A stretch of DNA of 34,312 nucleotides from Betaproteobacteria bacterium (lineage in GTDB: Bacteria; Pseudomonadota; Gammaproteobacteria; Burkholderiales; SG8-41), in contig JAYWDM010000244.1 of NCBI GenBank assembly GCA_043779885.1, positions 1 through 34,312 of the forward strand. The letters run 5' to 3'. Every line of letters starts with the position of its first letter. Positions within the stretch are counted from its first letter, which is position 1. Below, piece by piece: positions 14,467 to 34,312 of the stretch. A model generated the notes under the pieces. That model was not told the origin of the DNA, did no database searches, and was given only the letters and a program-made list of their open reading frames with translations. A program made the position numbers and the translations under genes.

Positions 14467-14557
14467 GGGGCGCCCCTCACGACTTCGCGTGGCGCCCGCG
14501 TGCGCGGCCGCCCGCGCAGCCGCGCACAGGCCGTGAAAGCCGGGTTCCAGTACAGCC

Positions 14558-15079: not shown

Positions 15080-15122
15080 TCATGGATAGTGCGCTCCGCT
15101 TGTCGTCGCCGGTGAACGCAGG

Positions 15123-18431: not shown

Positions 18432-19040
18432 TCAGATTTTGCCGCGTTTTTTCAGCCGGGATAGAGTTTCGGGCGACAAATTCAGATAGGACGCGAGTTC
18501 TTTTTTTGGCAGCCGTTCAACCAGCGCCGCGTGCTTGCGCGTAAAGCGCGCGACGCGCCCCGGGGCGTCGAGCAAATGCAGCGTAATGGTGTGCGCCATC
18601 ACTTCGCTCATCAGTTTCATCACCTCGAATTCGAAGCCGTTCTTGACCGCCGGATGCCGATCGATAAACGCGACCCATTCCTCCATGGGCAGCCGTGCCG
18701 TGCGCGCACGCGTGACCGCGCGTATCGAGTAAGGGATCGGGGTTTTCAGCCGCCATGCCGCATAGCTGGTATCGATTTCGGTTTCGGCCGCAAAACGCAG
18801 GATCATTTCCTTGCCGGCCCGCGTTGACACGACGCGCTTCAGGATGCCGTCGAGGATGAAATACTGTTGCATCGACGAGGCCCCCTGGTTTTCGAGCGGC
18901 GCGCCTTTGGCGTAGTCCGTTATGTCGACCAGCGGTTCGAACTCGTCCCATTGCTGGCGGTTGAGCGATTTCAACACCAGATTCTGACGCAGTTGCAGCC
19001 GCACTATCGTAGCTTCCGGGTGGCGGGCGAGCGAAGTCAT
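18432..19040 (-). CDS. Crp/Fnr-family transcriptional regulator (cNMP-binding-like effector domain plus C-terminal HTH), cysteine-free
   Basis: 202 aa. HTH KKELASYLNLSPETLSRLKK has the FNR-type E--SR recognition helix. The protein has no Cys at all, so no FNR-like Fe-S cluster. Divergent from oxc. Confidence 0.85.
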   Translation of the reverse strand: MTSLARHPEATIVRLQLRQNLVLKSLNRQQWDEFEPLVDITDYAKGAPLENQGASSMQQYFILDGILKRVVSTRAGKEMILRFAAETEIDTSYAAWRLKTPIPYSIRAVTRARTARLPMEEWVAFIDRHPAVKNGFEFEVMKLMSEVMAHTITLHLLDAPGRVARFTRKHAALVERLPKKELASYLNLSPETLSRLKKRGKI

Positions 19041-19226: not shown

Positions 19227-20987
19227 ATGGATACGGTAAGCGAAAATAAAGGCGCCGCGACTGCCACCAAAGAAGTGACCGACGGCTTTCATCTGGTCAT
19301 CGATGCCCTCAAACTCAATGGGATCGACACGATCTTCGGTCTGCCCGGTATCCCGATCACCGACCTCACCCGCAAGGCACAGGCCGCAGGCCTGCGCGTG
19401 ATTTCGTTCCGCCATGAGCAGAACGCCGGCAACGCCGCCGCAATCGCCGGCTTCATGACGCAAAAGCCCGGCATCTGCCTGACGGTGTCCGCCCCCGGCT
19501 TCCTGAACGGTCTGACCGCACTGACCAACGCGACCACCAACTGCTTCCCGATGATCCTCATCAGCGGCTCCAGCGAGCGCGAGATCGTCGACCTCCAGCA
19601 AGGTGACTACGAGGAAATGGATCAGTTGGCCATCGCCAAGCCGCTGTGCAAGGCCGCTTTTCGCGTGCTGCACGCCGGGGATATCGGCGTGGGCGTCGCG
19701 CGCGCCATTCGCGCCGCCGTCTCCGGCCGCCCGGGCGGCGTCTACCTCGACCTGCCGGCCAAGCTCTTTGCGCAGACGATGGACGCGGAAGCCGGCAGCA
19801 AATCGCTGATCAAGGTGGTCGATCCGGCGCCGCGCCAGATCCCGGCCCAGGACGCCGTGCAGCGCGCGCTTGACTTGCTCAAGAGCGCCAAGCGTCCGCT
19901 CATCGTGCTGGGCAAGGGCGCCGCCTACGCGCAGGCCGACGCGGACATCCGCGCCCTGATCGAAACGACCGGCATCCCCTACCTGCCGATGTCCATGGCC
20001 AAGGGTCTGTTGCCAGATACGCACGAACAGTCTGCTGCTGCCGCCCGCTCCTACGTGCTGCCCGGGGCCGATGTGGTGATGCTGGTCGGCGCCCGCCTGA
20101 ACTGGCTGCTTGCGCATGGCAAAGGCAAGACCTGGGGCGGCGCGGACCACAAGGCGTGGGGCGGCCAGAAGTTCATTCAGATCGACATCTCGCCACAGGA
20201 AATGGACAGCAACGTCCGTATCGACGCACCGCTGGTTGGCGACATCGGTTCCTGCGTGTCAGCGCTGCTCGCTGCGATTGGCTCCACCGCGGGCTCCGGT
20301 TGGGCCAGGCCGCCGGCCGAGTGGACAGGTGCAATCGCCGAGCGCAAGAACAAGAACCTTGCCAAGATGGCCGAGACCCTGGCCCGCGATCCGACGCCGA
20401 TGAATTTTCACAGCGCGCTGAACGTCGTGCGCGACATCATCAAGGCCAACCCGGACGCCATCCTGGTCAACGAAGGCGCCAACGCGCTGGACTTTACGCG
20501 CAGCATCGTCGACATGTACAAGCCGCGCAAGCGTCTGGACGTCGGCACGTGGGGCATCATGGGGATCGGCATGGGCTTTGCCGTCGCGGCCGCCGTGGTC
20601 AGCGGCCAGCCGGTAATCGCGATCGAGGGCGACAGCGCCTTCGGCTTCTCCGGCATGGAAGTCGAGACCATCTGCCGCTACAACCTGCCGGTCTGCGTGG
20701 TGGTTTTCAACAACAACGGCGTCTACCGCGGTACCGACGTCAATCCGACCGGCGGCCCCGATGTCGCGCCCACCGTGTTCGTCAAGGGTGCGCGCTATGA
20801 CAAGCTGATGGAGGCCTTCGGCGGCGCGGGGGTGCATGCGACGACGCCGGCCGGGTTGCGCAAGGCGATGGAAGAAGCCATCCGTTCGAAGAAGCCCACG
20901 CTCATCAATGCCGTCATCGATGAGACCGCCGGCACCGAAAGCGGCCGCATCACGAGCCTGAATCCGCAAAGCGCGAAAAAGACATAG
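19227..20987 (+). CDS. oxc: Oxalyl-CoA decarboxylase (ThDP-dependent)
   Basis: 586 aa, [48 protein letters not shown] and [21 protein letters not shown] are nearly identical to the Oxalobacter Oxc segments I recall. Confidence 0.95.
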
Positions 20988-21090: not shown

Positions 21091-22362
21091 ATGGAAGCAT
21101 TGAAGGGTGTTCGAATACTGGATATGACGCACGTGCAGGCGGGGCCGACCTGCTCGCAACTGCTCGCGTGGATGGGCGCGGACGTGATCAAGTTCGAGCC
21201 GCCGCAGGGCGATGCAACGCGCGGCCAGTTGCGCGATGTGCCGAATGCCGACAGCCTTTATTTCACGATGCTGAACTGCAACAAGCGCTCGATTACAGTC
21301 AACATGAAGTCGCCGGAAGGCAAGGTGGTATTCGTGGAATTGCTGAAGAAATGCGACATCATCATGGAAAATTTCGGTCCGGGCGTGCTCGACCGGTTCG
21401 GCTTTACCTGGGAAAAAATTCATGCGATCAATCCGCGCATTGTGATGGGTTCCATCAAGGGATTCGGTTCGTCCGGACCCTACGCCGATTTCAAGGCATA
21501 CGAAAACGTGGCGCAGGCGATGGGCGGCGCGATGAGTACGACCGGCGTTCCCGACGGGCCGCCATTTGTCACCGGCGCGCAGATCGGCGACACGGGCACC
21601 GGGCTGCACCTCGCGATTGGACTGCTCGCGGCGCTGCGTCAGGCGAGCATCACCGGGCAGGGGCAGTATGTCGAAGTGGCAATGATGGACGGCGTGATGA
21701 ACCTGTGCCGGGTCAAGTTTCGCGACCATCAGCGTCTGACCCGCGGCGAGCTTACAGAGTATTCCGTGCCCACGTATAAAGGCATGGGTGAAGTCCCGCG
21801 CGCGGGCAACGACTCCGGCGGCGGGCAACTCGGCAATGCCATCCACTGCAAGCCGCACGGCGCGAACGACTGGCTCTATGTGGTGGTGCAGGAAGCGGTG
21901 TGGGGCGCGCTGGCGAAACGCATTGGACCGGATATCGGCATGCCCGACCTTGCCACCGATGCGCATTTTCAGGCCATCGGGGGGCGGCGCAAGAACCAGC
22001 AACTCATGTGGACGCTGATCAACAAGTTCGCCGAGAAATACACCAAGCGCGAATTCATGGCGATTCTGAACCCGCTCGATGTGCCCTGCGGTCCGATCAT
22101 GTCGACGGAGGACCTCGCCAACGACGAGCATATTCGCGGCCGCGACATGTGGGTCGAACTCGACCATCCGCAGCGCGGCAAATGGTACAACGTCGGCATG
22201 CCGATCAAACTGTCCGCGTCACCGGCGAAAATCGAGCGTTCACCCACCCTCGGCGAGCATACTGACGAAGTCCTGAAAGAGGTGCTCGGCTGGAGCGATG
22301 CCGAGATCGGCGCCAGGAGGCAGGCGGGCGCGTTTTCCGCGCCGCCGAAAAAGTCGGCATGA
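21091..22362 (+). CDS. frc: Formyl-CoA:oxalate CoA-transferase (class III CoA-transferase)
   Basis: 423 aa. THVQAGPTCSQLL, DSLYFTMLNCNKRSI, ENFGPGVLDRFGFTWE, YENVAQAMGGAMSTTG, PTLGEHTDEVLKE. Confidence 0.95.
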   Translation: MEALKGVRILDMTHVQAGPTCSQLLAWMGADVIKFEPPQGDATRGQLRDVPNADSLYFTMLNCNKRSITVNMKSPEGKVVFVELLKKCDIIMENFGPGVLDRFGFTWEKIHAINPRIVMGSIKGFGSSGPYADFKAYENVAQAMGGAMSTTGVPDGPPFVTGAQIGDTGTGLHLAIGLLAALRQASITGQGQYVEVAMMDGVMNLCRVKFRDHQRLTRGELTEYSVPTYKGMGEVPRAGNDSGGGQLGNAIHCKPHGANDWLYVVVQEAVWGALAKRIGPDIGMPDLATDAHFQAIGGRRKNQQLMWTLINKFAEKYTKREFMAILNPLDVPCGPIMSTEDLANDEHIRGRDMWVELDHPQRGKWYNVGMPIKLSASPAKIERSPTLGEHTDEVLKEVLGWSDAEIGARRQAGAFSAPPKKSA

Positions 22363-22509: not shown

Positions 22510-22542
22510 ATGAAAATCGCAATTATCGGGCAGCAGGATTTT
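22510..22542 (+). repeat. Direct repeat copy 2 (authentic 5' end of the formyltransferase gene)
   Basis: 33/33 identity with 22409-22441. Confidence 0.9.
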
Positions 22543-23442
22543 GGGAAAGCAGTGCTGGATGCATTTCTCGCGCGCGGCGACAGCGTGGCCGCGGTGTTTT
22601 GCGCGCCGGAGAAGGCAGGCGCGCGGCCGGACGTATTGCGTGTCGCGGCGCAGGAGAACGGGATCAAGGTCTTCCAGTTCAAATCATTGCGCGCGCCTGA
22701 AGCGACGCAGGCGATGCGGGACGCCGACGCCGACATCGGGATAATGGCTTTCGTGCTCCAGTTTGCGCCACAGGAATTCGTGAATATTCCGCGGCATGGC
22801 ACGATTCAATATCACCCTTCGCTGCTGCCGAAGTTTCGCGGGCCCAGTTCGATCAATTGGCCGATTATCAAGGGCGAAACCACAACGGGATTGACCATAT
22901 TTCGTCCGACCGATGGACTCGATGAGGGCGCGATTGTCCTGCAGAAAGAAACGCCGATAAGCCCCGACGACACCTTGGGTACCGTCTATTTTGACCGGTT
23001 GTTCCCACTCGGTGTAAGTTCGATGCTGGAGGCGGCTGATTTGGTGGCGGCGGGCAAACATAAGGAAGTAGTGCAGGATGAGTCGCGGGCGAGCTATGAA
23101 GGCTGGTGCCGCGGCGCAGAGGCAAAAATAGACTGGGCGAAGCCCATCGATCATGTGTATAACCTGATTCGCGGTTGCAATCCTGCGCCGGCAGCCTGGA
23201 CAACGCACGGCGGAAAAAAACTTCAGATATTTGATGCGCGCAAGATAGTTTTCCGGCGTTTTGCCGAGGTCACGGGCAAAATCGGTGAAGTTACCGATGT
23301 CACGCCGCAAAGTTTCAAGGTGACTGCGCAAGGGGGCATGATCGAGGTCCTCAAAGCACGTTTCGAGGATGGCAAGAAACTGGCGGGCGGTGAAGTGGCA
23401 AAAACCGGGGGGCTGCAGGCCGGCAGCATGCTTGGCGGCTGA
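22510..23442 (+). CDS. Formyltransferase-family protein resembling the N-terminal hydrolase domain of 10-formyl-THF dehydrogenase
   Basis: 310 aa. MKIAIIGQQDFGKAV, HGTIQYHPSLLPKFRGPSSINW (catalytic His motif), TDGLDEGAIV (catalytic Asp), and a Formyl_trans_C-like tail (ASYEGW...IDW...NLIRGCNPAPAAWT). GGGGAG RBS. Confidence 0.85.
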   Translation: MKIAIIGQQDFGKAVLDAFLARGDSVAAVFCAPEKAGARPDVLRVAAQENGIKVFQFKSLRAPEATQAMRDADADIGIMAFVLQFAPQEFVNIPRHGTIQYHPSLLPKFRGPSSINWPIIKGETTTGLTIFRPTDGLDEGAIVLQKETPISPDDTLGTVYFDRLFPLGVSSMLEAADLVAAGKHKEVVQDESRASYEGWCRGAEAKIDWAKPIDHVYNLIRGCNPAPAAWTTHGGKKLQIFDARKIVFRRFAEVTGKIGEVTDVTPQSFKVTAQGGMIEVLKARFEDGKKLAGGEVAKTGGLQAGSMLGG

Positions 23443-23470
23443 AGTTTTCCGGCTTCCGGCGTCAGAAAAA

Positions 23471-23492
23471 GCCACCCTCAGGGTGGCTTTTT
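23471..23492 (+). terminator. Rho-independent terminator ending the oxc-frc-formyltransferase unit
   Basis: GCCACCC-TCA-GGGTGGC followed by TTTTT, with AAAAA on the 5' side (could work in both directions). Confidence 0.85.
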
Positions 23493-23761
23493 AGCGTTAT
23501 TTGTGCGCTGCCACACCCACTTTCACCGGCGCTTATCGTCAACTTGGCTACAATTTCCAAATCGCGCCGTACATGCGCCGCTTGCATAACTGTGGTTAAG
23601 GCAAGCAAAATGCAATTTGGCGCGTGGGCGCACCACGGGGATTCGATACGGTTTCTGGCGCACTTATGAAAAAAATCATATACTTGTTGGCAAATACCGT
23701 AAAATAATTGAGTCTTCAGCGTTAACCCATTAGAAAAAAAATATAAAAAATAGGTGTTGGG

Positions 23762-26347
23762 ATGAAAAATTTGACTTTTTGGAAGTCGGATTGGTTTCTC
23801 GGGGTCGTCATTGTCCTCGTGATCGCGCTATTCAACCGATTAAACGACCTCATACCCAGTCTGGAGCGCAAAGCGTACGACCTGGGCGTCATCGCCACTG
23901 CGCGTACGCCGTCCGACAAAATCGCGATCATTGCGATTGATGCCGATAGCCTCGACAAGATCGGCCGCTGGCCGTGGTCCCGCGAAGTGCTTGCCAAAAT
24001 GACCGATATGCTTGCCGCCACCAAGGCCAAGGCTATCGCGTATACCGTCCTGTTTTCCGAACCCCAGATTGACCCGGGCTACGTCTACATTGCCAAACTG
24101 CTCGAACTGGCGTCGAAAAATGGTGCGCCCGCCGACGATCCTAACGCGCAAAGCGGCGCCCCTGTTACCGGCCCAATGGGACCATTTGTCACGGTGCTCA
24201 AGGAGGCCGAGGAAACGCTGAACGTAGACCGCAAGCTTGCCGGCAGCTTTGCTCGCGCTGGCAACGTGGTGCCGATCATGCTGTTCGAACTCGGCGAGCC
24301 CCGGGGCAATCCGGATAAGCCGCTACCCGACTACGTTGCCGCGAACGCGCTGCCGAAGGCCGCCAAAGGCGCGGAGGAAAATGTGCTGCTTACGCGAAGG
24401 GTGGATTACCCGATCGAGATCATTGGAAAATCGGCCGCCGCCCTCGGCCATCTCAATGCGACGCCGGACGTGGACGGCGGCACTCGCACCGAACCCCTGG
24501 TGCTCATGTACTTCGACAAGATATTTCCATCGCTGTCCATGATGATCGCGGCCAAGGCATTGAATTTGGGCTTGAACGACATCAAGATCCAACCCGGCGA
24601 AAAGGTGACGCTCGGCAGGTTGAACATCACCACGGATTCGCTGACCCGGATGTACACCTATTTCTACAAGGACCGCGAGGGACGTCCGGCATTTACCATC
24701 GATTCCTTTTACGACGTGATAAACGGCAAGATTCCGGTCAGCAAGTACCAGGACAAGATTGTGCTGATTGGTCCCACGGCCGCGGGTCTCGGCAGCGCAA
24801 CCGTCACCCCGGTGTCGTCGGCGATGCCGCCAGTGCTTGTGCTCGCGCACTCGGTTTCGTCGATACTTTCCGAGCACTTCTTCGTGACACCCGCGTGGGG
24901 CTACTGGGTAGAACTGCTCGTTCTCGTGTTGATTGCCGCCTACCTTATTGCGCTGTTGCCACGCCTCAAAGCGACGCAGGCGCTCGTGATATCGAGCGGC
25001 ATGTTCGTGCTTTTGCTGGTCGCGCATTTCTTGCTGATGACGACGAGCGCGATCTGGATACAGCTCATGTTACCGGCCACTTTGCTGCTCGTCGGGCATC
25101 TGGCCCTCGTGTCCAAGCATTTTATCGTTACCGAAAGCGGCAAGGCGCGCTCGGATGTCGACCTGGCGCAAAGTCACCGCATGCTCGGTCTCGGCTACCA
25201 GGGCCAGGGGCAACTCGACACGGCATTCGACTATTTTCGCAAGCTGCCGCCTGATGACTCAGTGCTCGATCTGATTTACAACCTTGCGCTCGACTACGAA
25301 CGTAAGCGGCAGTTCAATAAGGCGGAAAACGCGTTCCGCTACATTTCCGAGAACAATCCGAAGTTCAAGGATATCGCGGATCGGGTGGGTCGCGCGAAGG
25401 CCATGTCCGAGACGGTCATACTCGGCGGTGGCGGCGGCCATCCCGGCGGGACGGTGATACTGCCCGGCGGCGGCGTCGAGAAACCCATGCTGGGTCGCTA
25501 CCAGGTCGAAAAAGAACTCGGCAAAGGCGCGATGGGCGTTGTGTACCTGGGCAAGGACCCGAAAATCGGCCGCGTGGTCGCGATCAAAACGATGGCGTTG
25601 TCGCAGGAATTCGATGCGGACGAGCTACAGGACGTGAAGGACCGTTTCTTCCGCGAAGCGGAGACCGCGGGCCGCCTGAATCACCCGTATATCGTGACGA
25701 TTTTCGACGCCGGCGAGGAACACGATCTCGCCTACATTGCAATGGAGTTTCTGAAGGGCAAGGACCTGACGCCTTTCATCAAGCCCGAAACCCTGCTGCC
25801 GCTGCCGAAGGTCCTGAGCATCATCGCGCGCGTGGCCGAAGCGTTGTCTTATGCCCACACCAATAGCGTCGTGCACCGGGATATCAAGCCTGCCAACATC
25901 ATGTATGAACTTGAAAGCGATACCGTCAAGGTCACGGACTTCGGCATCGCCCGCATCACCGACTCCTCCAAGACCAAGACCGGCATGGTGCTCGGCACAC
26001 CGAGCTACATGTCGCCCGAACAGCTTGCGGGCAAAAAAATTCAGGGCAGTTCGGACTTGTTCTCACTGGGCGTGACGCTTTACCAGATGGCTTGCGGCCA
26101 TTTGCCGTTTCAGGGCGATTCGATGGCGCAGCTCATGTTCAAGATCGCCAATGAGCCGCATGCAGATATCCTGACCTATAACCCGACACTCTCGCCGAGC
26201 GTGGTTGACATCGTCAATAAGTCGCTCGCCAAACAGCCGGAGGAGCGCTACCAGACCGGGGCCGAGATGGCGGAAGCGATCAAGGCATGCCTGGCGAGCG
26301 GTGGGGACGCCGCGGTCAAATCGGACGTTGTTGACATCGGGATATAG
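23762..26347 (+). CDS. Membrane Ser/Thr protein kinase with an N-terminal CHASE2 sensor, TPR-like linker and C-terminal Hanks-type kinase domain
   Basis: 861 aa. CHASE2 hallmarks (IAIIAIDADSLDKIGRWPWSR, AYTVLFSEP), then 3 TM segments and TPR-like LGLGYQGQGQLDTAFDYF...NLALDYERKRQFNKAENAF. Kinase motifs GKGAMGVVY, VAIK, HRDIKPAN, DFGIA, GTPSYMSPE. Confidence 0.9.
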   Translation: MKNLTFWKSDWFLGVVIVLVIALFNRLNDLIPSLERKAYDLGVIATARTPSDKIAIIAIDADSLDKIGRWPWSREVLAKMTDMLAATKAKAIAYTVLFSEPQIDPGYVYIAKLLELASKNGAPADDPNAQSGAPVTGPMGPFVTVLKEAEETLNVDRKLAGSFARAGNVVPIMLFELGEPRGNPDKPLPDYVAANALPKAAKGAEENVLLTRRVDYPIEIIGKSAAALGHLNATPDVDGGTRTEPLVLMYFDKIFPSLSMMIAAKALNLGLNDIKIQPGEKVTLGRLNITTDSLTRMYTYFYKDREGRPAFTIDSFYDVINGKIPVSKYQDKIVLIGPTAAGLGSATVTPVSSAMPPVLVLAHSVSSILSEHFFVTPAWGYWVELLVLVLIAAYLIALLPRLKATQALVISSGMFVLLLVAHFLLMTTSAIWIQLMLPATLLLVGHLALVSKHFIVTESGKARSDVDLAQSHRMLGLGYQGQGQLDTAFDYFRKLPPDDSVLDLIYNLALDYERKRQFNKAENAFRYISENNPKFKDIADRVGRAKAMSETVILGGGGGHPGGTVILPGGGVEKPMLGRYQVEKELGKGAMGVVYLGKDPKIGRVVAIKTMALSQEFDADELQDVKDRFFREAETAGRLNHPYIVTIFDAGEEHDLAYIAMEFLKGKDLTPFIKPETLLPLPKVLSIIARVAEALSYAHTNSVVHRDIKPANIMYELESDTVKVTDFGIARITDSSKTKTGMVLGTPSYMSPEQLAGKKIQGSSDLFSLGVTLYQMACGHLPFQGDSMAQLMFKIANEPHADILTYNPTLSPSVVDIVNKSLAKQPEERYQTGAEMAEAIKACLASGGDAAVKSDVVDIGI

Positions 26348-26352
26348 CCGCT

Positions 26353-27180
26353 ATGACCGTCAATCTCGGCACTGCCATTGAAATCGCGACCGCCACCGAC
26401 TCCGGGATGGTGCGCTCGCATAACGAAGACAGTATCGCCACCGACGCGGATATCGGTCTGGCGGTGCTCGCCGACGGCATGGGCGGATACAACGCAGGCG
26501 AGGTCGCGAGCGGCATCGCGGTCGCAATGCTCATGAGCGAAATGAAACAGGTGCTCGAGAAAAACAATCCATACGATGTCGACAGTTCCGGGGAAACGCT
26601 CGCGGAAAAGCTGGTGCGGGAGAACTCGGCCAAGGCAAACGGCGCGATTTATCAGACCGCGACGAGCCAGCCGCAGTATTCCGGAATGGGCACCACGCTC
26701 GTTATTGCGTTGTTTTACGATAATCGCATGACGGTCGGGCACATCGGCGACTCGCGGCTTTATCGCCTGCGCGGCGACACGTTTGAGCAGATCACCCGCG
26801 ACCACTCGCTGTTGCAGGAGCAAATTGACAGCGGCATGATTTCCAAGGAGCAGGCGCGCTTCTCGCAGAACAAGAATCTGGTGACGCGCGCTGTCGGCAT
26901 CGACCCGGAAGTGGAAACCGAGATTCACACTTATGCGGTCGCGCCGGGCGACATCTACCTGCTGTGTTCGGATGGATTGAGCGACATGGTGGTTGACGAC
27001 GAGATCCAGTCTACGTTGAGCACCCTGCAATCGAATTTGCAGCTGGCGGCCACGCAACTCGTCCAACTCGCCAATGACAGCGGCGGACGCGACAATATTT
27101 CAGTAATCCTGGTGCGAATCGTAAAGGATTTCGGGGCGCCCACCGGATGGTTTGCCAAATTCAAGGCTTGGTTTAGATAA
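26353..27180 (+). CDS. PP2C-family Ser/Thr protein phosphatase
   Basis: 275 aa, starting 5 nt after the kinase stop. RSHNEDS, LADGMGGYNAGEVAS, GTTLV, LCSDGLSDMV, GGRDNISVILV. Confidence 0.9.
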   Translation: MTVNLGTAIEIATATDSGMVRSHNEDSIATDADIGLAVLADGMGGYNAGEVASGIAVAMLMSEMKQVLEKNNPYDVDSSGETLAEKLVRENSAKANGAIYQTATSQPQYSGMGTTLVIALFYDNRMTVGHIGDSRLYRLRGDTFEQITRDHSLLQEQIDSGMISKEQARFSQNKNLVTRAVGIDPEVETEIHTYAVAPGDIYLLCSDGLSDMVVDDEIQSTLSTLQSNLQLAATQLVQLANDSGGRDNISVILVRIVKDFGAPTGWFAKFKAWFR

Positions 27181-27201
27181 TAAGGTTACAGGGATACTGC
27201 C

Positions 27202-28005
27202 ATGGCGAAGTTGATCATGAGTCTGGACAATGCGGTGATTCGGGAGGTATCGCTTGATAAAGAGCGGTTTACCATCGGCCGCAAGGCGCACAACGACATT
27301 CAGATCGACAATCTGGCGGTTAGCGGTGAGCATGCGTTGATAGTGACCATACTCAAAGATTCCTTTCTTGAGGACCTGGGCAGCACGAACGGCACTTTGG
27401 TCAACGGCAACCCGGTCAAGAAACACATTCTGCAGAACGGCGACGTTATTGAGATCGGCAAGTACAAGCTGAAGTACGTGACGGAAGCGCAGACCGGGCA
27501 AACCTCGGTTGCAGATTTCGAAAAAACCATGGTGCTGCGTGCACCCATCGGCAAGCCGGCTCCGTCAGGCCAGGTAGCGGGCAGCCTGGGTGATACCCAG
27601 ATCAACCCGGCTACCTCACCAAGCGCAGCGCCCCCTCACGCGGCGCCCGCAAATCCGGCGCCCCCCAACCCGGCCGCCACGCAAAGCCAGCCGGCGGTGC
27701 AGGCTGCTGCGACGCCGCCACCGGTCAAGCCGCCAGAAAAAATCGCGTCGATCCAGATCCTGACGGGAGGTGCGGCAGGCAAGGAACTCGAGCTGACCAA
27801 GAACCTGACGACGCTTGGCAAGCCGGGGGTGCAGGTGGCCGTGATCACGCGCCGGCCGCATGGCTATTTTATTACGCATGTCGAAGGCGCCAATTTTCCC
27901 GTGATCAACGGCAAGACGCTTGATGCGCAAGCGCACCAACTCAACGACCATGATGTGATCGAACTGGCAGGCGTAAAAATGGAGTTCTTTTTCAAGGCCG
28001 GCTAG
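27202..28005 (+). CDS. FHA-domain protein (canonical N-terminal FHA, Pro/Ala-rich linker, FHA-like C-terminal domain)
   Basis: 267 aa. N-terminal FTIGRKAHNDIQIDNLAVSGEHALI...GSTNGTLVNGNPV. Linker PSAAPPHAAPANPAPPNPAATQSQPAVQAAATPPPVKPP. C-terminal TTLGKPGVQVAVI...FITHVEGANFPVINGKTL...DVIELAGVKMEFF. Confidence 0.85.
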   Translation: MAKLIMSLDNAVIREVSLDKERFTIGRKAHNDIQIDNLAVSGEHALIVTILKDSFLEDLGSTNGTLVNGNPVKKHILQNGDVIEIGKYKLKYVTEAQTGQTSVADFEKTMVLRAPIGKPAPSGQVAGSLGDTQINPATSPSAAPPHAAPANPAPPNPAATQSQPAVQAAATPPPVKPPEKIASIQILTGGAAGKELELTKNLTTLGKPGVQVAVITRRPHGYFITHVEGANFPVINGKTLDAQAHQLNDHDVIELAGVKMEFFFKAG

Positions 28006-28160
28006 GCCGCAATGCCCGGACGGACGCAGCCAGCCGGCCATCGACCGTGTCACGCGACGTTCTGGACTTGAAAGGGCGGCGCGGAAAGCACGCAGTGGAG
28101 ATGGCAAGGCGGGCGGGCGGGGGCAGCGGATCGCGGGACGGGTGACGATAACGCTGAGTT

Positions 28161-28176
28161 TGGCACAAAACTTGCA
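28161..28176 (+). promoter_or_regulatory. Sigma-54 (RpoN) -24/-12 promoter TGGCAC-N5-TTGCA
   Basis: TGGCACAAAACTTGCA matches the TGGCAC-N5-TTGCW consensus exactly, with the correct GG-to-GC spacing. It sits 60 nt upstream of the cyclase start, in the only long (230 nt) gap of the cassette. Confidence 0.6.
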
Positions 28177-28235
28177 TAGTTGGTGCTGGGCTGCGGCGTT
28201 GGTTGCGTGGCGCGGCCGGCGGCACAGGAGGCGGT

Positions 28236-30467
28236 TTGAAAAAAAACGTGGTTCGCATCGGCTTGGGCGTGCTCTTGCTGCTGGTATTTCTCGGGCACGC
28301 GGCGAAGTATTACAAACTGCCTCTCGTCGAGCGCCTGGAGGCCATCGTTTACGATACGCGGCTGGTGTTGACGATGCCTCGCACAATAGATCCGCGCATT
28401 GTCATTCTCGACATCGATGAAAAAAGCCTCGTCGAGAAGGAGAAAGGCGGCGAAGGCCGCTGGCCATGGCCGCGCGACCGTCTGGCACTCCTGCTCGACA
28501 AACTCTTTGACCATTACAAGATAGCCATTGTCGGCTTCGACGTCGTTTTCGCCGAACGTGACGACAGTTCGGGCCTGCGCGTGCTCCAGCAGCTTGCGCA
28601 AAAGGAACTGAAGGAAATCCCCGGATTTCAGGCGACGCTCAAACAGCTGCAACCGGAACTGGAATATGACGAGCTGTTCGCCGGCCGCATGCGCGACCGC
28701 GCGGTTGTACTCGGGTACACCTTCAATTTCGACAAGGAGACTATCAAAGGGGAGTTGCCGGCGCCCGTGTTGCCTGCAGGAACGTTTGGCGCGAAGAACA
28801 TCGATTTTCACAGTTATGGCGGCCATACCGCCAATCTCGCCGTGCTGCAGAAAGCAGCGGCAACCGCGGGCCATTTCAGCATCGAGCCCGATGTCGACGG
28901 CATATTGCGCCGCGTGCCCATGCTCGCCGAGTCCGGTGGCGCCTATTACGAGCCGTTGTCGCTTGCGATGGTCCGCCTGATTATTGGCAGTCCTAAAATC
29001 ACTCCCGGCTACCCTTCGGACAAGATATGGTCGAGAAATTATTCAGGTCTCGAATGGCTTGAGGTCGGACCATTGAAGATCCCGGTCGACGAGCGGGTGA
29101 CCGCGTTGATTCCGTATCGTGGCGGGCAGCGGAGCTTCAGCTATATTTCCGCGGTCGACGTGATGAGCGAACGCACTGATCTCGCGCAGTTACAGGGCAA
29201 GATCGTTTTGGTCGGCACCACCGCGCCGGGGTTGCTCGACCTGCGGGCCACCCCGGTCGACAACGTCTACCCGGGTGTGGAAATCCACGCCAATATGATC
29301 AGCGGGATGCTGGACCGCAACATCAAGCAGAAGCCGCCTTACGTCATAGGCGCCGAGTTCCTGTCACTTTTGATTGCGGGACTTACAATGGCATTGCTGC
29401 TGCCGCTCCTGAATCCGATGAAATCGTTGCTTGTGACCGTCGCCGTTCTGGTGATGGTGTTATTTTTTAATCTGCTTGTGTTTCATGTGGGCAACCTGGT
29501 GTTGCCGCTCGCGTCGGGGCTTTTGCTGATCTCGCTGCTGTTCGCGCTCAACATGACCTACGGGTATTTCGTTGAAACGCGCGGCAAGCGCCAGATTGTG
29601 GGGCTATTCGGCCAATACGTGCCGCCTGAGCTGGTCGACGAAATGGCGCTCAATCCGGAAAGCTTTTCGATGGAGGGCGCATCGCGCGAAATGACGGTGT
29701 TGTTTACCGACGTGCGTGGCTTTACCACCATATCCGAGGGGCTCGATCCCAAGCAGCTGTCGCAGTTGATGAACGAATTTCTGACCCCGCTTACCGAAGT
29801 CATTTACAAGCATCGCGGTACCGTGGATAAATTCATGGGCGACTGCATCATGGCATTCTGGGGCGCGCCACTCGCCGATCCGGCGCATGCCCGTAACGGC
29901 GTGCTCGCCGGCATGGAGATGCACGAGGCCCTGCAAAAGCTCAAGCCTGAATTTCTGGCGCGCGGCTGGCCTGAAATCCGCATTGGCGTCGGCCTCAACA
30001 CCGGCCGCATGAGTGTCGGGAACATGGGTTCGAAGCTCAGGACTGCCTATACGGTGATGGGCGATGCGGTAAACCTCGCATCGCGGCTCGAAAGCATCAC
30101 GAAAGAGTATGGCGCGGATATCATCGTCGGCGAGGGCACTAAAGATGCGGTGCCCGACGTGGTGTTTCGGGAGCTTGACCGCGTGCGCGTCAAGGGCAAG
30201 GATGTTGCAGTGGCGATTTTTGAGCCGTTTGGCATGCAGGGCCAGGTCAGCAAGCCGAGACTCGAGGAAATCAAGCTTTACACCCAGTTCCTGCGGCTGT
30301 ATCGCGCGCAGGATTGGGACCAGGCGGAGTTACAGTTGTTCAATTTGCAGAAGCAGACTCCCTCGAGCACGCTTTACAGTCATACGTTCGTGGAGCGGAT
30401 ATCTTATTTGCGCGCAAATCCTCCCGGCAAAGGCTGGGATGGCGCGTTTACGTTTACGACCAAATAA
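28236..30467 (+). CDS. Membrane class III adenylate/guanylate cyclase with an N-terminal CHASE2 sensor
   Basis: ORF 28203..30467. TTG 28236 lies 5 nt after AGGAGG, so the start is uncertain (28203, 28236 or 28248). CHASE2 motifs IVILDIDEKSL...GRWPWPRD, GFDVVFAER, followed by TM segments. Cyclase motifs VLFTDVRGFT, VDKFMGDCIMAFWGAP, RIGVGLNTG, YTVMGDAVNLASRLE. The Lys (DKFMGD) and Thr (YTVMGD) pair suggests ATP specificity (class IIIb-like). Confidence 0.9.
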   Translation: MKKNVVRIGLGVLLLLVFLGHAAKYYKLPLVERLEAIVYDTRLVLTMPRTIDPRIVILDIDEKSLVEKEKGGEGRWPWPRDRLALLLDKLFDHYKIAIVGFDVVFAERDDSSGLRVLQQLAQKELKEIPGFQATLKQLQPELEYDELFAGRMRDRAVVLGYTFNFDKETIKGELPAPVLPAGTFGAKNIDFHSYGGHTANLAVLQKAAATAGHFSIEPDVDGILRRVPMLAESGGAYYEPLSLAMVRLIIGSPKITPGYPSDKIWSRNYSGLEWLEVGPLKIPVDERVTALIPYRGGQRSFSYISAVDVMSERTDLAQLQGKIVLVGTTAPGLLDLRATPVDNVYPGVEIHANMISGMLDRNIKQKPPYVIGAEFLSLLIAGLTMALLLPLLNPMKSLLVTVAVLVMVLFFNLLVFHVGNLVLPLASGLLLISLLFALNMTYGYFVETRGKRQIVGLFGQYVPPELVDEMALNPESFSMEGASREMTVLFTDVRGFTTISEGLDPKQLSQLMNEFLTPLTEVIYKHRGTVDKFMGDCIMAFWGAPLADPAHARNGVLAGMEMHEALQKLKPEFLARGWPEIRIGVGLNTGRMSVGNMGSKLRTAYTVMGDAVNLASRLESITKEYGADIIVGEGTKDAVPDVVFRELDRVRVKGKDVAVAIFEPFGMQGQVSKPRLEEIKLYTQFLRLYRAQDWDQAELQLFNLQKQTPSSTLYSHTFVERISYLRANPPGKGWDGAFTFTTK

Positions 30468-30478
30468 AGACGGCATTG

Positions 30479-31243
30479 ATGAAACTCCGGATTCTCGGCT
30501 GCAGCGGCGGCATCAGCGGCGACCTGCGCACCACGTCAATGCTGATCGATCATGACGTGCTGATTGACGCGGGCACCGGTGTCGGGGACCTGAGCATTGC
30601 CGAGCTTGCCCGGATTGATCATGTATTCGTCACGCATTCGCATCTTGATCACGTTACATCAATCCCGTTCATGGTCGATTCGGTGGGTTGGATGCGCGAC
30701 GGACCGATCACCGTGCATGCGATCGAGGCCACTCTCGAAATTCTGCGCCAGCATCTGTTCAACTGGAAAATCTGGCCGGATTTCACGCAGATTCCGGATG
30801 CCCGCAAGCCTTTTCTGCGCTACCAGGCAGTCGTTCTGGGAAAGACGGTCGACATCAATGGCCGCAAACTGACGCCACTGCCGGCCAACCACGTCGTGCC
30901 GGCTGTCGGCTACCGGGTGGATTCCGGCCGCGCCAGTCTTGTGTTCACGGGAGACACCACCACTAACGATCCGTTGTGGGTGGAAGTCAACAGGATCGAC
31001 AATCTGCGTTATCTGATCATCGAGACGGCATTTTGCAATCGTGAACGCGATCTGGCGATTGCATCGAAGCATCTGTGTCCGAGCATGCTGGCGGACGAAC
31101 TGGCGAAACTAAAGCGCAATGCGGAAGTCTATATTACGCACCTCAAGCCTGGCGAAATCGAGCTGACGATGCAGGAAATCACGGAATGCGCCGGCGCTTA
31201 CAACCCGCGCATGCTTGAAAACAACCAGGTTTTCGAATTTTAA
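30479..31243 (+). CDS. Class II-like 3',5'-cyclic-nucleotide phosphodiesterase (metallo-beta-lactamase fold)
   Basis: Internal ATG of ORF 30314..31243, 11 nt after the cyclase stop. MKLRILGCSGG, LIDAGTG, and VTHSHLDHVTSIP (H-x-H-L-D-H core of the class II cAMP PDE signature; later signature positions diverge). Confidence 0.75.
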   Translation: MKLRILGCSGGISGDLRTTSMLIDHDVLIDAGTGVGDLSIAELARIDHVFVTHSHLDHVTSIPFMVDSVGWMRDGPITVHAIEATLEILRQHLFNWKIWPDFTQIPDARKPFLRYQAVVLGKTVDINGRKLTPLPANHVVPAVGYRVDSGRASLVFTGDTTTNDPLWVEVNRIDNLRYLIIETAFCNRERDLAIASKHLCPSMLADELAKLKRNAEVYITHLKPGEIELTMQEITECAGAYNPRMLENNQVFEF

Positions 31244-31316
31244 GTTTCAAGGGTATCTGGCGCGGGGTCGTTACTGTAGATTATGGTATGAGAGCTAGAT
31301 GAAAGGTTAAACCGCC

Positions 31317-33764
31317 ATGAGTACGGTACTCGAAAGCAAGCCGGTCGCGCAGGACAACCTTGCGGAGAAGCTCAATTTCTCCACGGCCCTGCAGGCGGCC
31401 ACGAACAGAATCCATGCGGCCAGCAACATTGACGAAATCATCCTGGAATTGAGCCAGGACATTTGCGGGCTCTTTAACGCCGACCGGCTCACGATATATC
31501 TCGTCAGCGAAGACAAAACCTCGATTATCTCGAAGGTCAAGACCGGGCTTAATTCGTTCAAGGACCTGAAGCTGCCGATTGCGGAGCAAAGTATCGCGGG
31601 CTTTGTCGCGGTGCATAAGAAATTGATCAACATCCGCGACGTCTACGACGAGAAAGAGCTCAAGACCTACAGCCCGCAGCTCAATTTTCTGAAACAGGTG
31701 GACCTCAAGACGGGCTACCGTACCAAGCAGATGCTCGTTGCGCCGGTAGTTGATGCGCAAACCAAGGAATTGATCGGCGTGGTGCAGATCATCAATTCCA
31801 AGAGCGGCCAGCCGTTCCCGCCGGCGATGGAGGAGGGCGCGATCCATGTGGGCGAAACCCTGGCGATCGCGTTTCGCCAGCGCCAGAAATCCGTCACCAC
31901 CGTCAAAGGCAAATACGACCATCTTGTTTCGAACGCGGTAATCTCGGCCGAGGAGCTTGAACTTGCGACGCGCTCGGCGCGGCGCAAGAACCTCGATATC
32001 GAAACCGTGCTGATCGACGAGTTCCAGGTCAAGTTGAATTCCATCGGGGAGGCGCTCGCCGCCTATTTCGATGTGCCCTACGAGCCGCACAAGTCCGACC
32101 GGGTAAAGCCGATGGACCTCATGAAGAACATGAGCCGGGAGTTCGTGGAAAGCAGCCAGTGGGTGCCGGTCGACGAATCGAAGGACGGCATCGTCATATT
32201 GACGACCGACCCGGAAAAAATCCGCGGTTCCAGGGTCGTCACCAACGTCTACCCGAAAGGCAAGCTCCTCTACAGGGTGTGCTGTACGCGTGAATTCGCG
32301 GCGACGCTCGATCTGTTCTTTGGCGGCAGCGGCTCGGCAGGCGTCGGTTCGCTCGACGACGGCACCGAGATCGGGGACTTGCTGTCGGGACTGGAGGACG
32401 GGGAGACGCTGGAGGACGCCAATGAAGATGTCGCGTCGGCCGCATCGGATAATGAGGTCGTCAAGCTCGTCAACAAGATTATCGTCGACGCCTACAAACA
32501 GGGCGCATCCGATATTCATATCGAGCCCTACCCCGGCAAGGGGAAAACCGAGGTTCGTTTCCGCAAGGATGGCTCGCTCATGAACTACATTTCGGTGCCT
32601 GCCGCGTATCGCAACGCGATTGCGGCGCGCCTGAAGATCATGTGCGACCTCGATATTTCGGAGCGCCGCAAACCGCAGGACGGCAAGATCAAATTCAAGA
32701 AATACGGCCCGCTCGATATCGAACTGCGGGTGGCGACGATTCCGTCGCAAGGCGGCGTCGAAGACATTGTGATGCGGATTCTCGCTGCTGGCGAGCCGAT
32801 CCCGCTCGATAAGCTGGGGTTGTCCAAGCACAATCTGCAACAGTGCAAGGCAACGATCGGCAAGCCCTATGGGCTTTTCTTCGTGTGCGGCCCGACCGGC
32901 TCCGGCAAGACGACGACGCTGCACTCGGTGCTCGGCTATCTGAATACGGCGGACACGAAAATCTGGACCGCCGAAGACCCGGTGGAAATTACACAGCGCG
33001 GCCTGCGCCAGGTTCAGATGAATCCGAAGGCAGGGCTGACGTTTGCCGTCGCGATGAAAGCATTTTTGCGCGCCGACCCGGACATCATCATGGTCGGCGA
33101 GATGCGTGACAAGGAAACGGTGGGGACCGGCATCGAAGCGTCGCTCACCGGTCACCTGGTATTTGCCACGCTGCATACCAATTCGGCGCCGGAATCGATC
33201 GTCCGTCTGCTCGATATGGGCATGGACCCGTTCAATTTTGCCGACGCCCTGCTCGGCATCCTGGCGCAGCGCCTGACCAAGCGGCTGTGCGGCAAATGCA
33301 AGAAGCCGCGCGTGGCGAAGCCGGAAGAATTGAGATCGCTGCTCGACGAGTATTCGCTGGAGATGCTGAATACCAGGAAGTGGGGGGCAATCATCGAGGA
33401 TACCGCGACGTCGAAGGAGAATGCCGGAGCTACCGCGAAGAGGAATGAGAAAGTCGAGGAGATGAAGGCGGCCCAGCTTCAGGAATGGGTCAATGAATTC
33501 GGCAAAGATGGCGAGATCACGCTGTATGAAAAGGCCGGGTGCGACTCGTGCGGCGGCACCGGTTATAAAGGCCGTGTGGGCCTGCATGAGTTGTTGATCG
33601 GAACCGACCCGATCAAGAAACACATACAGGAACACTCGCGGGTCGCCGACATGCTTGCCACAGCGCTTGAGGAGGGCATGCGCACCCTGAAGCAGGACGG
33701 TATCGAAAAAGTATTGGCGGGGGTTACCGACATCGCGCAGGTGCGCGCGGTTTGCATCAAGTAA
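31317..33764 (+). CDS. GspE/PilB-family secretion ATPase with an N-terminal GAF domain and a T2SSE_N-like domain
   Basis: 815 aa. GAF-like residues about 25-190 (ILELSQDICGLFNADRLTIYLV...MLVAPVVDAQTKELIGVVQIIN). T2SSE_N-like residues about 200-330. ATPase core ASDIHIEP, RKPQDGKI, Walker A GPTGSGKTT, EDPVEI, Walker B IMVGEMRD, His box ATLHTN. Tetracysteine CGKC...CDSC with an unusually long spacer of about 80 aa. Confidence 0.9.
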   Translation: MSTVLESKPVAQDNLAEKLNFSTALQAATNRIHAASNIDEIILELSQDICGLFNADRLTIYLVSEDKTSIISKVKTGLNSFKDLKLPIAEQSIAGFVAVHKKLINIRDVYDEKELKTYSPQLNFLKQVDLKTGYRTKQMLVAPVVDAQTKELIGVVQIINSKSGQPFPPAMEEGAIHVGETLAIAFRQRQKSVTTVKGKYDHLVSNAVISAEELELATRSARRKNLDIETVLIDEFQVKLNSIGEALAAYFDVPYEPHKSDRVKPMDLMKNMSREFVESSQWVPVDESKDGIVILTTDPEKIRGSRVVTNVYPKGKLLYRVCCTREFAATLDLFFGGSGSAGVGSLDDGTEIGDLLSGLEDGETLEDANEDVASAASDNEVVKLVNKIIVDAYKQGASDIHIEPYPGKGKTEVRFRKDGSLMNYISVPAAYRNAIAARLKIMCDLDISERRKPQDGKIKFKKYGPLDIELRVATIPSQGGVEDIVMRILAAGEPIPLDKLGLSKHNLQQCKATIGKPYGLFFVCGPTGSGKTTTLHSVLGYLNTADTKIWTAEDPVEITQRGLRQVQMNPKAGLTFAVAMKAFLRADPDIIMVGEMRDKETVGTGIEASLTGHLVFATLHTNSAPESIVRLLDMGMDPFNFADALLGILAQRLTKRLCGKCKKPRVAKPEELRSLLDEYSLEMLNTRKWGAIIEDTATSKENAGATAKRNEKVEEMKAAQLQEWVNEFGKDGEITLYEKAGCDSCGGTGYKGRVGLHELLIGTDPIKKHIQEHSRVADMLATALEEGMRTLKQDGIEKVLAGVTDIAQVRAVCIK

Positions 33765-33774
33765 GGCTATTGCA

Positions 33775-34312
33775 ATGAACGAAGCGCTGCGCCCGCCGGA
33801 ACCCGCCAATCTTTTTGAGCGTCTTGAGCAACTCAACCAGGTCGGGGTCGCGCTGTCGAAGGAAACCGATATCAACCGGTTGCTCGAAGCGATCCTTCTC
33901 GCGGCCAAGAAAATAACCCGTGCGGACGGCGGAACGCTGTATCGCGTGACGGACGAAAACACGCTCAAATTCGAAATCATGCGCAATGACACCCTCAACA
34001 TTGCGATGGGCGGCACGACGGGCGTAAGCATCCCGTTTGCGCCGATTCATTTGTTCGACCCGGACGGCAAGCCCGTCAATACCATGGTCGCGGCGTACGC
34101 GTTTCATCACGATACGTCGGTCAATATCGCGGATGCGTATACCCAGGAGGGGTTCGACTTTTCAGGCACCAAGAACTTCGACAAGAATACCGGCTATCGC
34201 TCGCAGTCGTTCCTGACGGTACCGATGAAAAATCACGAGAACGAGATCATCGGCGTGCTGCAACTTCTGAACGCCAGGGACAAGACGAGCGGCGCGGTCA
34301 GCGCGTTTTTGC
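33775..34312 (+). CDS. GAF-domain protein, 3'-truncated by the window end (output domain unseen)
   Basis: ATG 33775 lies 10 nt after the GspE-like stop, and the frame stays open to the window end (not in the ORF track because there is no stop). MNEALRPPEPANLFERLEQLNQVGVALSKETDINRLLEAILLAAKKITRADGGTLYRV...FLTVPMKNHENEIIGVLQLLNA is GAF-like. From memory this N-terminus often precedes HD/HD-GYP domains, but that is not visible here. Confidence 0.75.
   Translation, partial: MNEALRPPEPANLFERLEQLNQVGVALSKETDINRLLEAILLAAKKITRADGGTLYRVTDENTLKFEIMRNDTLNIAMGGTTGVSIPFAPIHLFDPDGKPVNTMVAAYAFHHDTSVNIADAYTQEGFDFSGTKNFDKNTGYRSQSFLTVPMKNHENEIIGVLQLLNARDKTSGAVSAFL

Follow-up and report, generated by a model that had tools for sequence, protein, structure and literature searches.

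Organization of the locus

A seven-gene signalling cassette lies at one end of a 34,312-nt stretch of DNA (hereafter, the window) from a bacterium of the Burkholderiales, registered as Betaproteobacteria bacterium (contig JAYWDM010000244.1 of GenBank assembly GCA_043779885.1). Its genes, g1 to g7, encode a Ser/Thr kinase, a PP2C phosphatase, an FHA adaptor, a class III cyclase, a metallo-beta-lactamase (MBL)-fold hydrolase, a PilB-type ATPase with an N-terminal GAF domain, and a GAF-HD-GYP protein (Table 1). The ATPase g6 is the output motor of the cassette. A preliminary description of the window had proposed seven genes in the same direction from position 23762 to the window end, and the open reading frames (ORFs) and their Pfam content agree with this: all ORFs of the cassette are on the plus strand, and g1 opens at 23762. 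The intergenic gaps given there, 5, 21, 230, 11, 73, and 10 nt, are also correct, and the strong terminator and the AT-rich gap that it placed ahead of the cassette are both real. The terminator, now located at 23466-23492, marks the 5′ boundary of the cassette. The 269-nt leader behind it, with a GC content of 44.6% against 56-59% in the cassette genes, is presumably the promoter region, and no match to the sigma-70 consensus was found on its plus strand (23493-23761). The GC-rich gap between g3 and g4 separates the phospho-threonine genes from the cyclic-nucleotide genes. It has no terminator-like site and no Rfam match, and may hold an internal promoter or be the seam between two modules. 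Rfam at gathering thresholds found no RNA element in the whole window, both long gaps included.

Table 1. Features of the cassette, its downstream region and the remainder of the window. Positions refer to the window, except for those marked L001, which refer to a longer metagenome contig.
Feature	Position	Strand	Description
g1	23762..26347	+	Membrane CHASE2 sensor - TPR - Hanks-type Ser/Thr kinase, 861 aa
g2	26353..27180	+	PP2C Ser/Thr phosphatase, Stp1/IreP type, 275 aa
g3	27202..28005	+	FHA adaptor, 267 aa: N-terminal FHA, Pro/Ala-rich linker, degenerate C-terminal FHA-like domain
g4	28236..30467	+	Membrane CHASE2 sensor - class III adenylate cyclase, 743 aa; TTG start, AGGAGG ribosome-binding site
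g5	30479..31243	+	MBL-fold hydrolase, 254 aa
g6	31317..33764	+	GAF - MshEN-like - PilB-type T2SSE ATPase, 815 aa
g7	33775..34312 (window end)	+	GAF-HD-GYP protein, 552 aa; first 179 codons in window
Intrinsic terminator	23466..23492	+	12-bp stem, 6 GC pairs, then T-run; closes upstream formyltransferase gene
AT-rich leader	23493..23761	+	269 nt, 44.6% GC; last 130 nt 35% GC
g3-g4 gap	28006..28235	+	230 nt, 68% GC; between phospho-threonine and cyclic-nucleotide genes
Tandem repeat	L001 14271-14505		Two copies, ~117 nt each (…GCGCGGCCTCAGCAAGACCAGCGAGGGTT.AGAGT…CCGCAAAAACCGCGGGGCCCCTGTTCCGCCTCTCAT); fills space after g7
104-aa protein	L001 14510-14824	-	Convergent to g7, ~750 nt past window-equivalent end of g7; no Pfam match
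NAD-linked formate dehydrogenase subunits	4498-9001
Formate-tetrahydrofolate ligase	10178-11854
TctCBA transporter (TctABC)	13450-16616
MFS transporter	16632-17927
Crp-like protein	18432-19040	-	202 aa; cNMP-binding domain (7e-7); within metabolic island, 4.7 kb upstream of cassette
Oxalyl-CoA-decarboxylase-like enzyme	19227-20987		Thiamine-diphosphate (TPP) enzyme
Family III CoA-transferase	21091-22362
Formyltransferase	22510-23442

The GAF-ATPase

To follow conservation, the seven proteins were aligned with orthologues from retrieved loci carrying g6 relatives (labelled below with L-numbers, such as L001 and L068), 38-73 sequences per gene with 50-91% identity to the window proteins. The catalytic signatures of all seven proteins are conserved across these alignments. 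In g6, Pfam recognizes a T2SSE ATPase domain (1.1e-112) as well as GAF and MshEN. Among 73 orthologues the motifs GPTGSGKTT (Walker A), D(I/V)IMVGEMRD, and TGHLVFATLHTN are kept, with the Walker A and B motifs and the His box intact. The tetracysteine zinc motif of extension ATPases is also present, as CGKC at residue 658 and CDSC at residue 742; the second CxxC is kept in 73 of 73 orthologues, and the first is aligned with a gap (C-KC) in 11 of them. The best structural match of the ATPase part in the PDB is Myxococcus xanthus PilB (3jc8, 4e-108), followed by Thermus PilF and Geobacter PilB, and then by Vibrio cholerae EpsE (1e-90). The NCBIfam models give the same ranking, with PilB (TIGR02538) at 485.4 bits above GspE (TIGR02533) at 441 bits. 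No gsp gene was found among the called neighbours of g6 within 10 kb on either side in L001. The enzyme had first been taken for an orphan GspE-type ATPase. Both rankings speak against the GspE type, and the orphan aspect falls away because relatives show pilus genes next to g6 homologues, as described below.

In front of the motor, the GAF domain of g6 finds its best match in the cAMP-binding GAF domains of Anabaena CyaB2 (1ykd, 2.5e-29), where it is closest to GAF-B, and has further matches to PDE2A GAF-B (3e-11), PDE10A (2.5e-8), and PDE5. The core VDxKTGYRTKQMLxxP is conserved and makes it a member of the PDE/CyaB subgroup of GAF domains by sequence. It is predicted to be a sensor of cyclic AMP (cAMP) as well. 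Behind the GAF domain, residues 252-340 match the MshEN family (PF05157, 34.3 bits, cutoff 23.1), and the MshEN-like segment aligns with the N-terminus of M. xanthus PilB from PilB residue 9 on.

Cyclic-nucleotide and HD-GYP enzymes

The cyclase g4 combines CHASE2 (Pfam, 1.3e-55) with a Guanylate_cyc domain (1.2e-21), and its TTG start agrees with the gene call on identical metagenome contigs. The catalytic domain is most similar in the PDB to cyclases derived from Cya2 and to Pseudomonas aeruginosa CyaB (3r5g, 3.7e-35). Residues D492, K532, D536, T606, N613, and R617 are kept in 66 orthologues and form the full class III cyclase set, which we take to consist of two metal-binding Asp residues, a substrate-defining Lys together with Asp/Thr, and a transition-state Asn and Arg. 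Lys532 aligns with a Glu in the guanylate cyclase Cya2 and with a Lys in its adenylate-cyclase derivative. Together, Lys532 and Thr606 make up the Lys/Thr pair that marks class IIIb cyclases as specific for adenylate, so the product of g4 should be cAMP. Outside the cassette, the Crp-like protein of 202 aa in the upstream metabolic island could be a further reader of cAMP made by g4.

The next gene, g5, probably encodes a class-II-like cyclic-nucleotide phosphodiesterase, and this is the weakest functional assignment in the cassette. Its signature H(S/A)H(L/M)DH is kept in 58 orthologues. Pfam reports Lactamase_B_2 (4.4e-17) and PDEase_II (3.2e-13), the latter above cutoff but covering 63 of 340 model positions, together with a weak Apyc1-like match, and the NCBIfam model for cyclic-nucleotide phosphodiesterases gives 40 bits against a cutoff of 400.

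The last gene was at first described as a GAF protein. The GAF domain is indeed there, but the window cuts the gene short. In L001, a longer contig, it occupies positions 12459-14117, so that its end would equal window position 35433, and the full-length copy matches GAF, HD, and HD_5 in Pfam. Its best PDB match is the GAF-HD-GYP protein PmGH of Persephonella (4mcw, 4.7e-30). Among 62 orthologues, LHDCG is found in all 62, HHERMDGKGYP (HHExxDGxGYP) in 56, and DRPYK (RxxK) again in all 62. RxxK is reported as the signature of HD-GYP proteins specific for cyclic di-GMP (c-di-GMP), and RxxQ/N as that of those specific for cyclic GMP-AMP (bioRxiv 10.1101/600031). From its motifs, g7 would be a c-di-GMP phosphodiesterase. 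It shares its architecture with PmGH and with Tlr0485 of Thermosynechococcus, which is activated by cAMP and lowers c-di-GMP; activity and ligand of g7 are predictions. It differs from PmGH in an insertion of ~115 residues that splits the HD-GYP domain (residues 294-408 have no counterpart in PmGH), and the HD-to-HHE spacing is 155-171 aa among the 62 orthologues. An insertion of the same kind, associated with GAF and with unknown function, is present in the Leptospira REC-GAF-HD-GYP protein LIC_11189 (PMC12943098).

Phospho-threonine genes

The kinase g1 contains CHASE2 (Pfam, 2.7e-50), TPR, and Pkinase (1.1e-57) domains, and the kinase motifs GxGxxG, VAIK, HRDxKPAN, DFG, and SPE are invariant or near-invariant in 44 orthologues. 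Its CHASE2 domain shares 26% identity with that of g4 (E 2e-23), and by sequence the two are paralogues rather than near-copies. The phosphatase g2 exceeds the cutoff of the NCBIfam model Stp1_PP2C_phos (251.8 bits, cutoff 230), with the metal-binding motifs DGMGG, GDSR, SDGL, and GGRDN kept in 60 orthologues. The adaptor g3 has a canonical FHA domain at residues 24-86 (Pfam, 5.1e-23), in which GR, SxxH, and GSTNGT are kept in 38 orthologues, followed by a linker whose length varies from 52 to 169 aa. The name "dual-FHA" that had been given to g3 is justified for this first domain. The second copy, in the C-terminal 90 aa, is degenerate: its FHA matches are below the Pfam threshold (E 0.0019 and 0.035), and the Arg/Ser-x-x-His phospho-threonine loop is missing. 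A single-sequence AlphaFold2 model of g3 was unusable (pLDDT, the predicted local confidence, 43.6), and the question was judged by hhalign, which relates the C-terminal domain to the N-terminal FHA of the same protein with 70% probability (E 4e-5).

Distribution and conserved linkage

The g6 protein is identical on three metagenome contigs, of which L001 (39.5 kb) extends 10 kb beyond the window end. In a species-level scan with one genome per species and the N-terminal GAF and MshEN-like unit of g6 as query, at least 567 genomes encode a close relative. All of the best 80 are metagenome-assembled genomes (MAGs), and almost every one carries the label Burkholderiales or Betaproteobacteria. 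When metagenome contigs were scanned with remoter members of the family as seeds, another 80 loci were obtained. The unit has 243 representatives at 50% clustering (E < 1e-30). Carriers of the full cassette are uncultured Burkholderiales MAGs or metagenome contigs. A tblastn search of the plasmid database PLSDB with full-length g6 and with its N-terminal 345 aa found only ordinary PilB/GspE or unrelated GAF proteins. Within the family, some members of 940-1125 aa (P0121, P0140, P0158, P0165, P0172, and P0173) align with the query over at least two separate stretches (six for the 1003-aa P0121, three for the 1125-aa P0140), which suggests tandem GAF units ahead of the ATPase.

Conservation of the neighbourhood, which the preliminary description had proposed as a check, proved to be strong. 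Among 70 loci long enough for the whole cassette, 43 have all seven genes in order, and four more lack only g5. The full seven-gene order is kept even at 62-70% protein identity, and across differing flanks in L016, L072, L081, and L083. In three other loci the CHASE2 kinase and cyclase are missing, and PP2C, FHA, MBL, ATPase, and HD-GYP genes are present; one of these variants, L150, has metabolic genes upstream instead, and no CHASE2 kinase or cyclase lies within 6.5 kb. A further 12 loci form clade B, whose g6 proteins are 55-65% identical to that of the window. Here the CHASE2 cyclase and the GAF-HD-GYP genes are on the opposite strand, divergent from the MBL and GAF-ATPase genes, and the kinase, PP2C, and FHA genes are absent. 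Because clade B retains cyclase, MBL, GAF-ATPase, and GAF-HD-GYP genes without the phospho-threonine set, the cyclic-nucleotide genes around the ATPase are read as the stable core, and the phospho-threonine genes as a later, lineage-specific addition that was then retained. Functional coupling of the four core genes is argued from the fact that they stay neighbours through the rearrangement in clade B. In one clade B locus, L099, a TpsB-type outer-membrane transporter (ShlB/POTRA; 3041-4618, minus strand) directly adjoins the CHASE2 cyclase gene, which hints at a link of two-partner secretion to CHASE2 sensing.

Downstream region and type IV pili

That no pilin, platform, secretin, or type VI secretion system (T6SS) gene stands beside the cassette, as noticed earlier, holds for this contig including its extension in L001: no type II secretion system (T2SS), type IV pilus, or T6SS gene was found within 8.3 kb downstream of the cassette, and a six-frame scan of the window and L001 for prepilin N-termini was negative. 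The relatives give a different picture. In L068 the order is kinase, PP2C, FHA, cyclase, GAF-ATPase, pilC, pilD, and coaE, with pilC 52% (E 9e-126) and pilD 43% (E 2e-64) identical to their Acinetobacter baumannii counterparts. It is a canonical pilBCD-coaE locus in which the g6 homologue takes the pilB slot. In 81 loci g7 is complete and the contig runs far enough beyond it to judge; 23 of these have a prepilin gene on the same strand within 1.5 kb after g7. This pilin is of the type IVa major-pilin type, and the copy in L113 matches the Pfam families Pilin and N_methyl. In roughly 20 more loci a pilin-type gene follows at 2-7 kb. A sister clade (~50% identical) has the order ATPase, pilin, ankyrin, PilZ, and the homologue in Nitrospira is isolated after proS, next to two PilZ genes. 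The genes of a known machine directly downstream, which the preliminary description had named as the observation that would reduce its proposal to the regulatory end of that machine, are thus seen in part in relatives (L068 and the 23 pilin loci), and not in this contig. The sub-clade of the window itself (at least 80% identity) has lost or moved the pilin.

In L001, g7 is followed by three minus-strand genes, for the 104-aa protein, a 265-aa protein, and an FkbM-type methyltransferase, and then by TPR, GT8-like, and GT2 genes. A tandem repeat occupies the position after g7 at which many relatives have the pilin gene. A 225-aa ORF after the TPR gene was considered as a divergent pilin and rejected; it is GT8-like. 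The 104-aa protein is 81-91% identical in closer relatives and is encoded near the cassette, on either strand, in most loci that reach that far, and may be an eighth component of the cassette, unrecognised so far. The region behind the cassette repeatedly encodes TPR proteins, FkbM-type methyltransferases, glycosyltransferases (GT2, GT1, and GT8-like), an epimerase, and a spermine-synthase-like protein of 1000 aa (L001 15632-22448, L113 14835-20702, and L117 14702-19577). These genes often adjoin the pilin gene and may be a cluster for glycosylation of the pilin or the cell surface.

On the other side of the cassette, positions 1-23442 of the window contain genes of C1 and oxalate-type metabolism, among them those for succinyl-CoA-ligase-like proteins and the enzymes and transporters listed in Table 1. 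Most close relatives also have the family III CoA-transferase and formyltransferase genes next to the cassette. GC content is 58% in the cassette, with 0.69-0.78 at third codon positions (GC3), compared with 62% and 0.78-0.85 in neighbouring genes. Recent horizontal acquisition was considered, but this offset is too small to speak for it.

Proposed function and alternative explanations

The gene content, the intact motifs, the conserved linkage, the affinity of g6 to PilB, and the adjacency of pilA and pilCD in relatives are observations. On balance we favour, with moderate confidence, the view that the cassette is a regulatory unit for extension of type IVa pili, built around a PilB-type ATPase with a GAF domain of the cyclic-mononucleotide type. 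Every biochemical step of the mechanism proposed here is drawn from sequence or from characterised relatives, and what we infer is which ligands are bound, in which direction they regulate, and what the phospho-threonine marks act on. An envelope or periplasmic cue would be perceived by the CHASE2 domain of the cyclase g4 and lead to synthesis of cAMP. Binding of cAMP to the GAF domain of g6 would relieve autoinhibition of the hexameric motor, and pilin polymerisation would start. The same cAMP could bind the GAF domain of g7 and switch on its HD-GYP domain, so that c-di-GMP would fall, as with Tlr0485, and the cell would shift to the motile state. The MBL-fold enzyme g5 would clear cAMP and reset the system. 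A second CHASE2 sensor, on the kinase g1, would write phospho-threonine, countered by the PP2C phosphatase g2, and the FHA protein g3 would read it; through its degenerate second FHA-like domain, g3 may dock onto the ATPase or the cyclase. This branch might add a further condition of the AND type or set the gain. Genes for the platform, pilins, and secretin of the pilus would lie elsewhere in the genome. Direct post-translational control is predicted because the GAF domains that would receive cAMP are built into the motor and the HD-GYP enzyme.

The idea of two signalling channels coupled to an ATPase goes back to the preliminary description, which saw a writer, an eraser, and a reader for both phospho-threonine and a cyclic nucleotide. 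By gene content both sets are present. A third circuit, that of HD-GYP and c-di-GMP, had been missed. Coupling to the ATPase agrees with the conserved linkage, but the two channels are not equal in this respect, since clade B keeps only the cyclic-nucleotide genes.

Several points weigh against a role in pilus extension as proposed here. The ATPase g6 is under both equivalog cutoffs (PilB, 485.4 against 675.65 bits; GspE, 441 against 630.25 bits). If these genomes also carry a conventional pilB, g6 might instead be a paralogue specialised for something else. Neither this contig nor its closest relatives (at least 80% identity) show a pilus gene within ~8 kb of the cassette. Ligand specificity of GAF domains is not confidently readable from sequence, and cAMP as the ligand of g6 is a prediction. 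The tie of g5 to class II phosphodiesterases is weak, with a match to yeast PDE1 at 9e-6 in the PDB search, and several otherwise complete cassettes do without g5. The phospho-threonine target was sought in g6 through conservation of Ser/Thr residues, in a comparison of 14 sequences of clade B with 117 of the large clade that carries the kinase, PP2C, and FHA genes (although many of the 117 come from contigs that do not reach these genes), and none was identified; only residues 69 and 748 track the kinase-bearing clade, and neither is convincing. Finally, the 230-nt gap between g3 and g4 allows two separate transcription units.

This gap leads to the first alternative, in which the cassette consists of two or three independent units that happen to adjoin; the kinase, PP2C, and FHA proteins would serve an unrelated pathway, and only the cyclic-nucleotide genes would belong with the ATPase. 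Clade B, with cyclase, MBL, ATPase, and HD-GYP genes and without the other three, fits such a separation, as do loci of the L150 type, where PP2C and FHA genes occur without the nearby CHASE2 kinase or cyclase. However, all variants of the large clade have the PP2C and FHA genes immediately ahead of the ATPase block, and this holds even for L134, L150, and L153, where kinase and cyclase are gone. The lack of a terminator in the gap, and the persistence of the seven-gene order at 62-70% identity and with differing flanks, also argue against independence, and we regard it as rather unlikely.

Two other alternatives seem less probable still. One, which corresponds to the orphan GspE motor of the preliminary description, is that g6 powers a machine other than a pilus, T2SS-like or a novel system of secretion or uptake, with its remaining components either not recognised or located elsewhere, and that the cassette gates secretion. 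The absence of platform, pilin, and secretin genes within ~8 kb in this contig, the scores of g6 below the PilB and GspE equivalog cutoffs, and the isolated homologue in Nitrospira would all suit such a machine. Nevertheless, PilB models and structures beat those of GspE for g6, pilC, pilD, and coaE follow its homologue in L068, and a major-pilin-type gene comes after the cassette in 23 of 81 relatives and also in the sister clade. No homologue of gspC, gspD, gspF, gspG, gspL, or gspM was found among ~165 loci, in a search whose seeds were PilC and PilD only, both matching just L068.

The other is that c-di-GMP controls g6 through MshEN, as in MshE and M. xanthus PilB, while the GAF domain is structural or binds another ligand and g7 sets the local c-di-GMP level. 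The MshEN match of g6 is above the Pfam cutoff (34 against 23 bits), an HD-GYP enzyme of the RxxK type is encoded next to it, and PilZ genes adjoin the ATPase gene in two outgroup clades. The c-di-GMP motif of MshEN is a tandem 24-residue motif, for which a relaxed form was used by Wang et al. (PMC5013675; motif also in PMC12943098). Even in this form it fails in g6 (residues 198-250), where 6 and 7 of 11 specified positions match, compared with 11 of 11 in M. xanthus PilB as a control. At the Arg and Gly positions of the motif, K-Y-D and N-L-D replace R-h-G. The degeneracy is common to the whole GAF-ATPase family, including its distant members, and makes this control by c-di-GMP improbable.

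An anti-phage or abortive-infection system that uses kinase and cyclic-nucleotide signalling is barely credible: PADLOC reports kinase (PD-T4-6, mad6) and PycC cyclase matches and g5 has its weak Apyc1-like match, but the PADLOC matches are all to generic domains, with none for g3, g5, and g7, the cassette has no effector (nuclease, TIR, or pore-forming protein), its metabolic flanks are stable across many species, unlike those of a variable island, and its GC3 is near that of neighbouring genes. Pycsar or another defence of the cyclic-nucleotide type was rejected as well, given that there is no effector activated by cyclic nucleotide monophosphate (cNMP) and that the PycC domain matches are only generic.

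If the cassette does regulate pilus extension, it would let a signal from the envelope reach pilus extension directly and quickly, and would be a concrete case of cross-talk of cAMP, c-di-GMP, and phospho-threonine at one motor. To our knowledge, second-messenger control of type IV pilus motors has so far been seen only for c-di-GMP, through MshEN or PilZ partners, and we know of control of pili by cAMP only through transcription factors of the Crp/Vfr type. In a wider and more tentative proposal, GAF-PilB proteins might be a widespread class of pilus motors in which cAMP and GAF replace c-di-GMP and MshEN as the allosteric switch; a Burkholderiales lineage would then have recruited a cyclase, a phosphodiesterase, a GAF-HD-GYP converter, and a phospho-threonine/FHA gate, with three systems converging post-translationally. 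The family is large. It is found in Nitrospira and in Burkholderiales that are abundant in soil, groundwater, and freshwater, and may shape the surface behaviour of uncultured bacteria that matter in these environments.

Comparison with known systems

A literature search, with thin coverage of subscription journals, found no description of a GAF-PilB fusion or of the cassette, which is real, conserved, and apparently undescribed so far. Within the same coverage, the earlier statement that no characterised system has this composition stands: the nearest known systems each share parts of it, and none combines them all. The closest motors are MshE of V. cholerae, PilB of M. xanthus, and PilB2 of Clostridium perfringens. 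Like g6, these are hexameric ATPases of the PilB/GspE family with N-terminal sensing of a nucleotide messenger. They sense c-di-GMP via MshEN, whereas in g6 the MshEN motif is degenerate and an extra GAF domain of the CyaB2/PDE type is placed in front. Unlike them, g6 also has dedicated genes for a cyclase, phosphodiesterases, and the phospho-threonine system alongside.

In P. aeruginosa, the CyaB/CpdA/Vfr system controls type IV pili by cAMP through a Crp-family transcription factor. The likeness to the cassette consists in a membrane class III cyclase, CyaB being among the best PDB matches of the g4 catalytic domain, a cAMP phosphodiesterase, and type IV pili. Similarly, cAMP is needed for pilus-dependent motility in Synechocystis, with Cya1 and Sycrp1 (PMC7690835). 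Both systems act via a Crp-family transcription factor, whereas the predicted receptors of the cassette are fused GAF domains acting post-translationally.

For the phospho-threonine branch, a comparison is offered by the threonine-phosphorylation pathway PpkA/PppA/Fha1 of the H1-T6SS of P. aeruginosa. There, too, a Hanks-type kinase whose sensor lies outside the cytoplasm is encoded together with a PP2C phosphatase and an FHA protein, beside a part of a nanomachine. In the cassette, unlike this pathway, the sensor is CHASE2 and the adjoining machine part is a PilB-type ATPase. The preliminary description was right to set the two apart, as no T6SS family is present among the called genes within 10 kb on either side in L001. 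tblastn and Pfam checks found no T6SS genes in the other loci, and g3 reaches 49 bits with the TagH model, whose cutoff is 120. FHA-dependent signalling to a machine related to type IV pili is known from Sulfolobus, where ArnA (FHA), ArnB, and Ser/Thr kinases control the archaellum in a phospho-dependent manner (PMC4307647). This system differs in being archaeal, in acting on transcription of the archaellum operon, and in its protein architecture. The component parts of the cassette are all of familiar types, and it is best filed as a second-messenger-gated pilus motor rather than as a categorically new machine.

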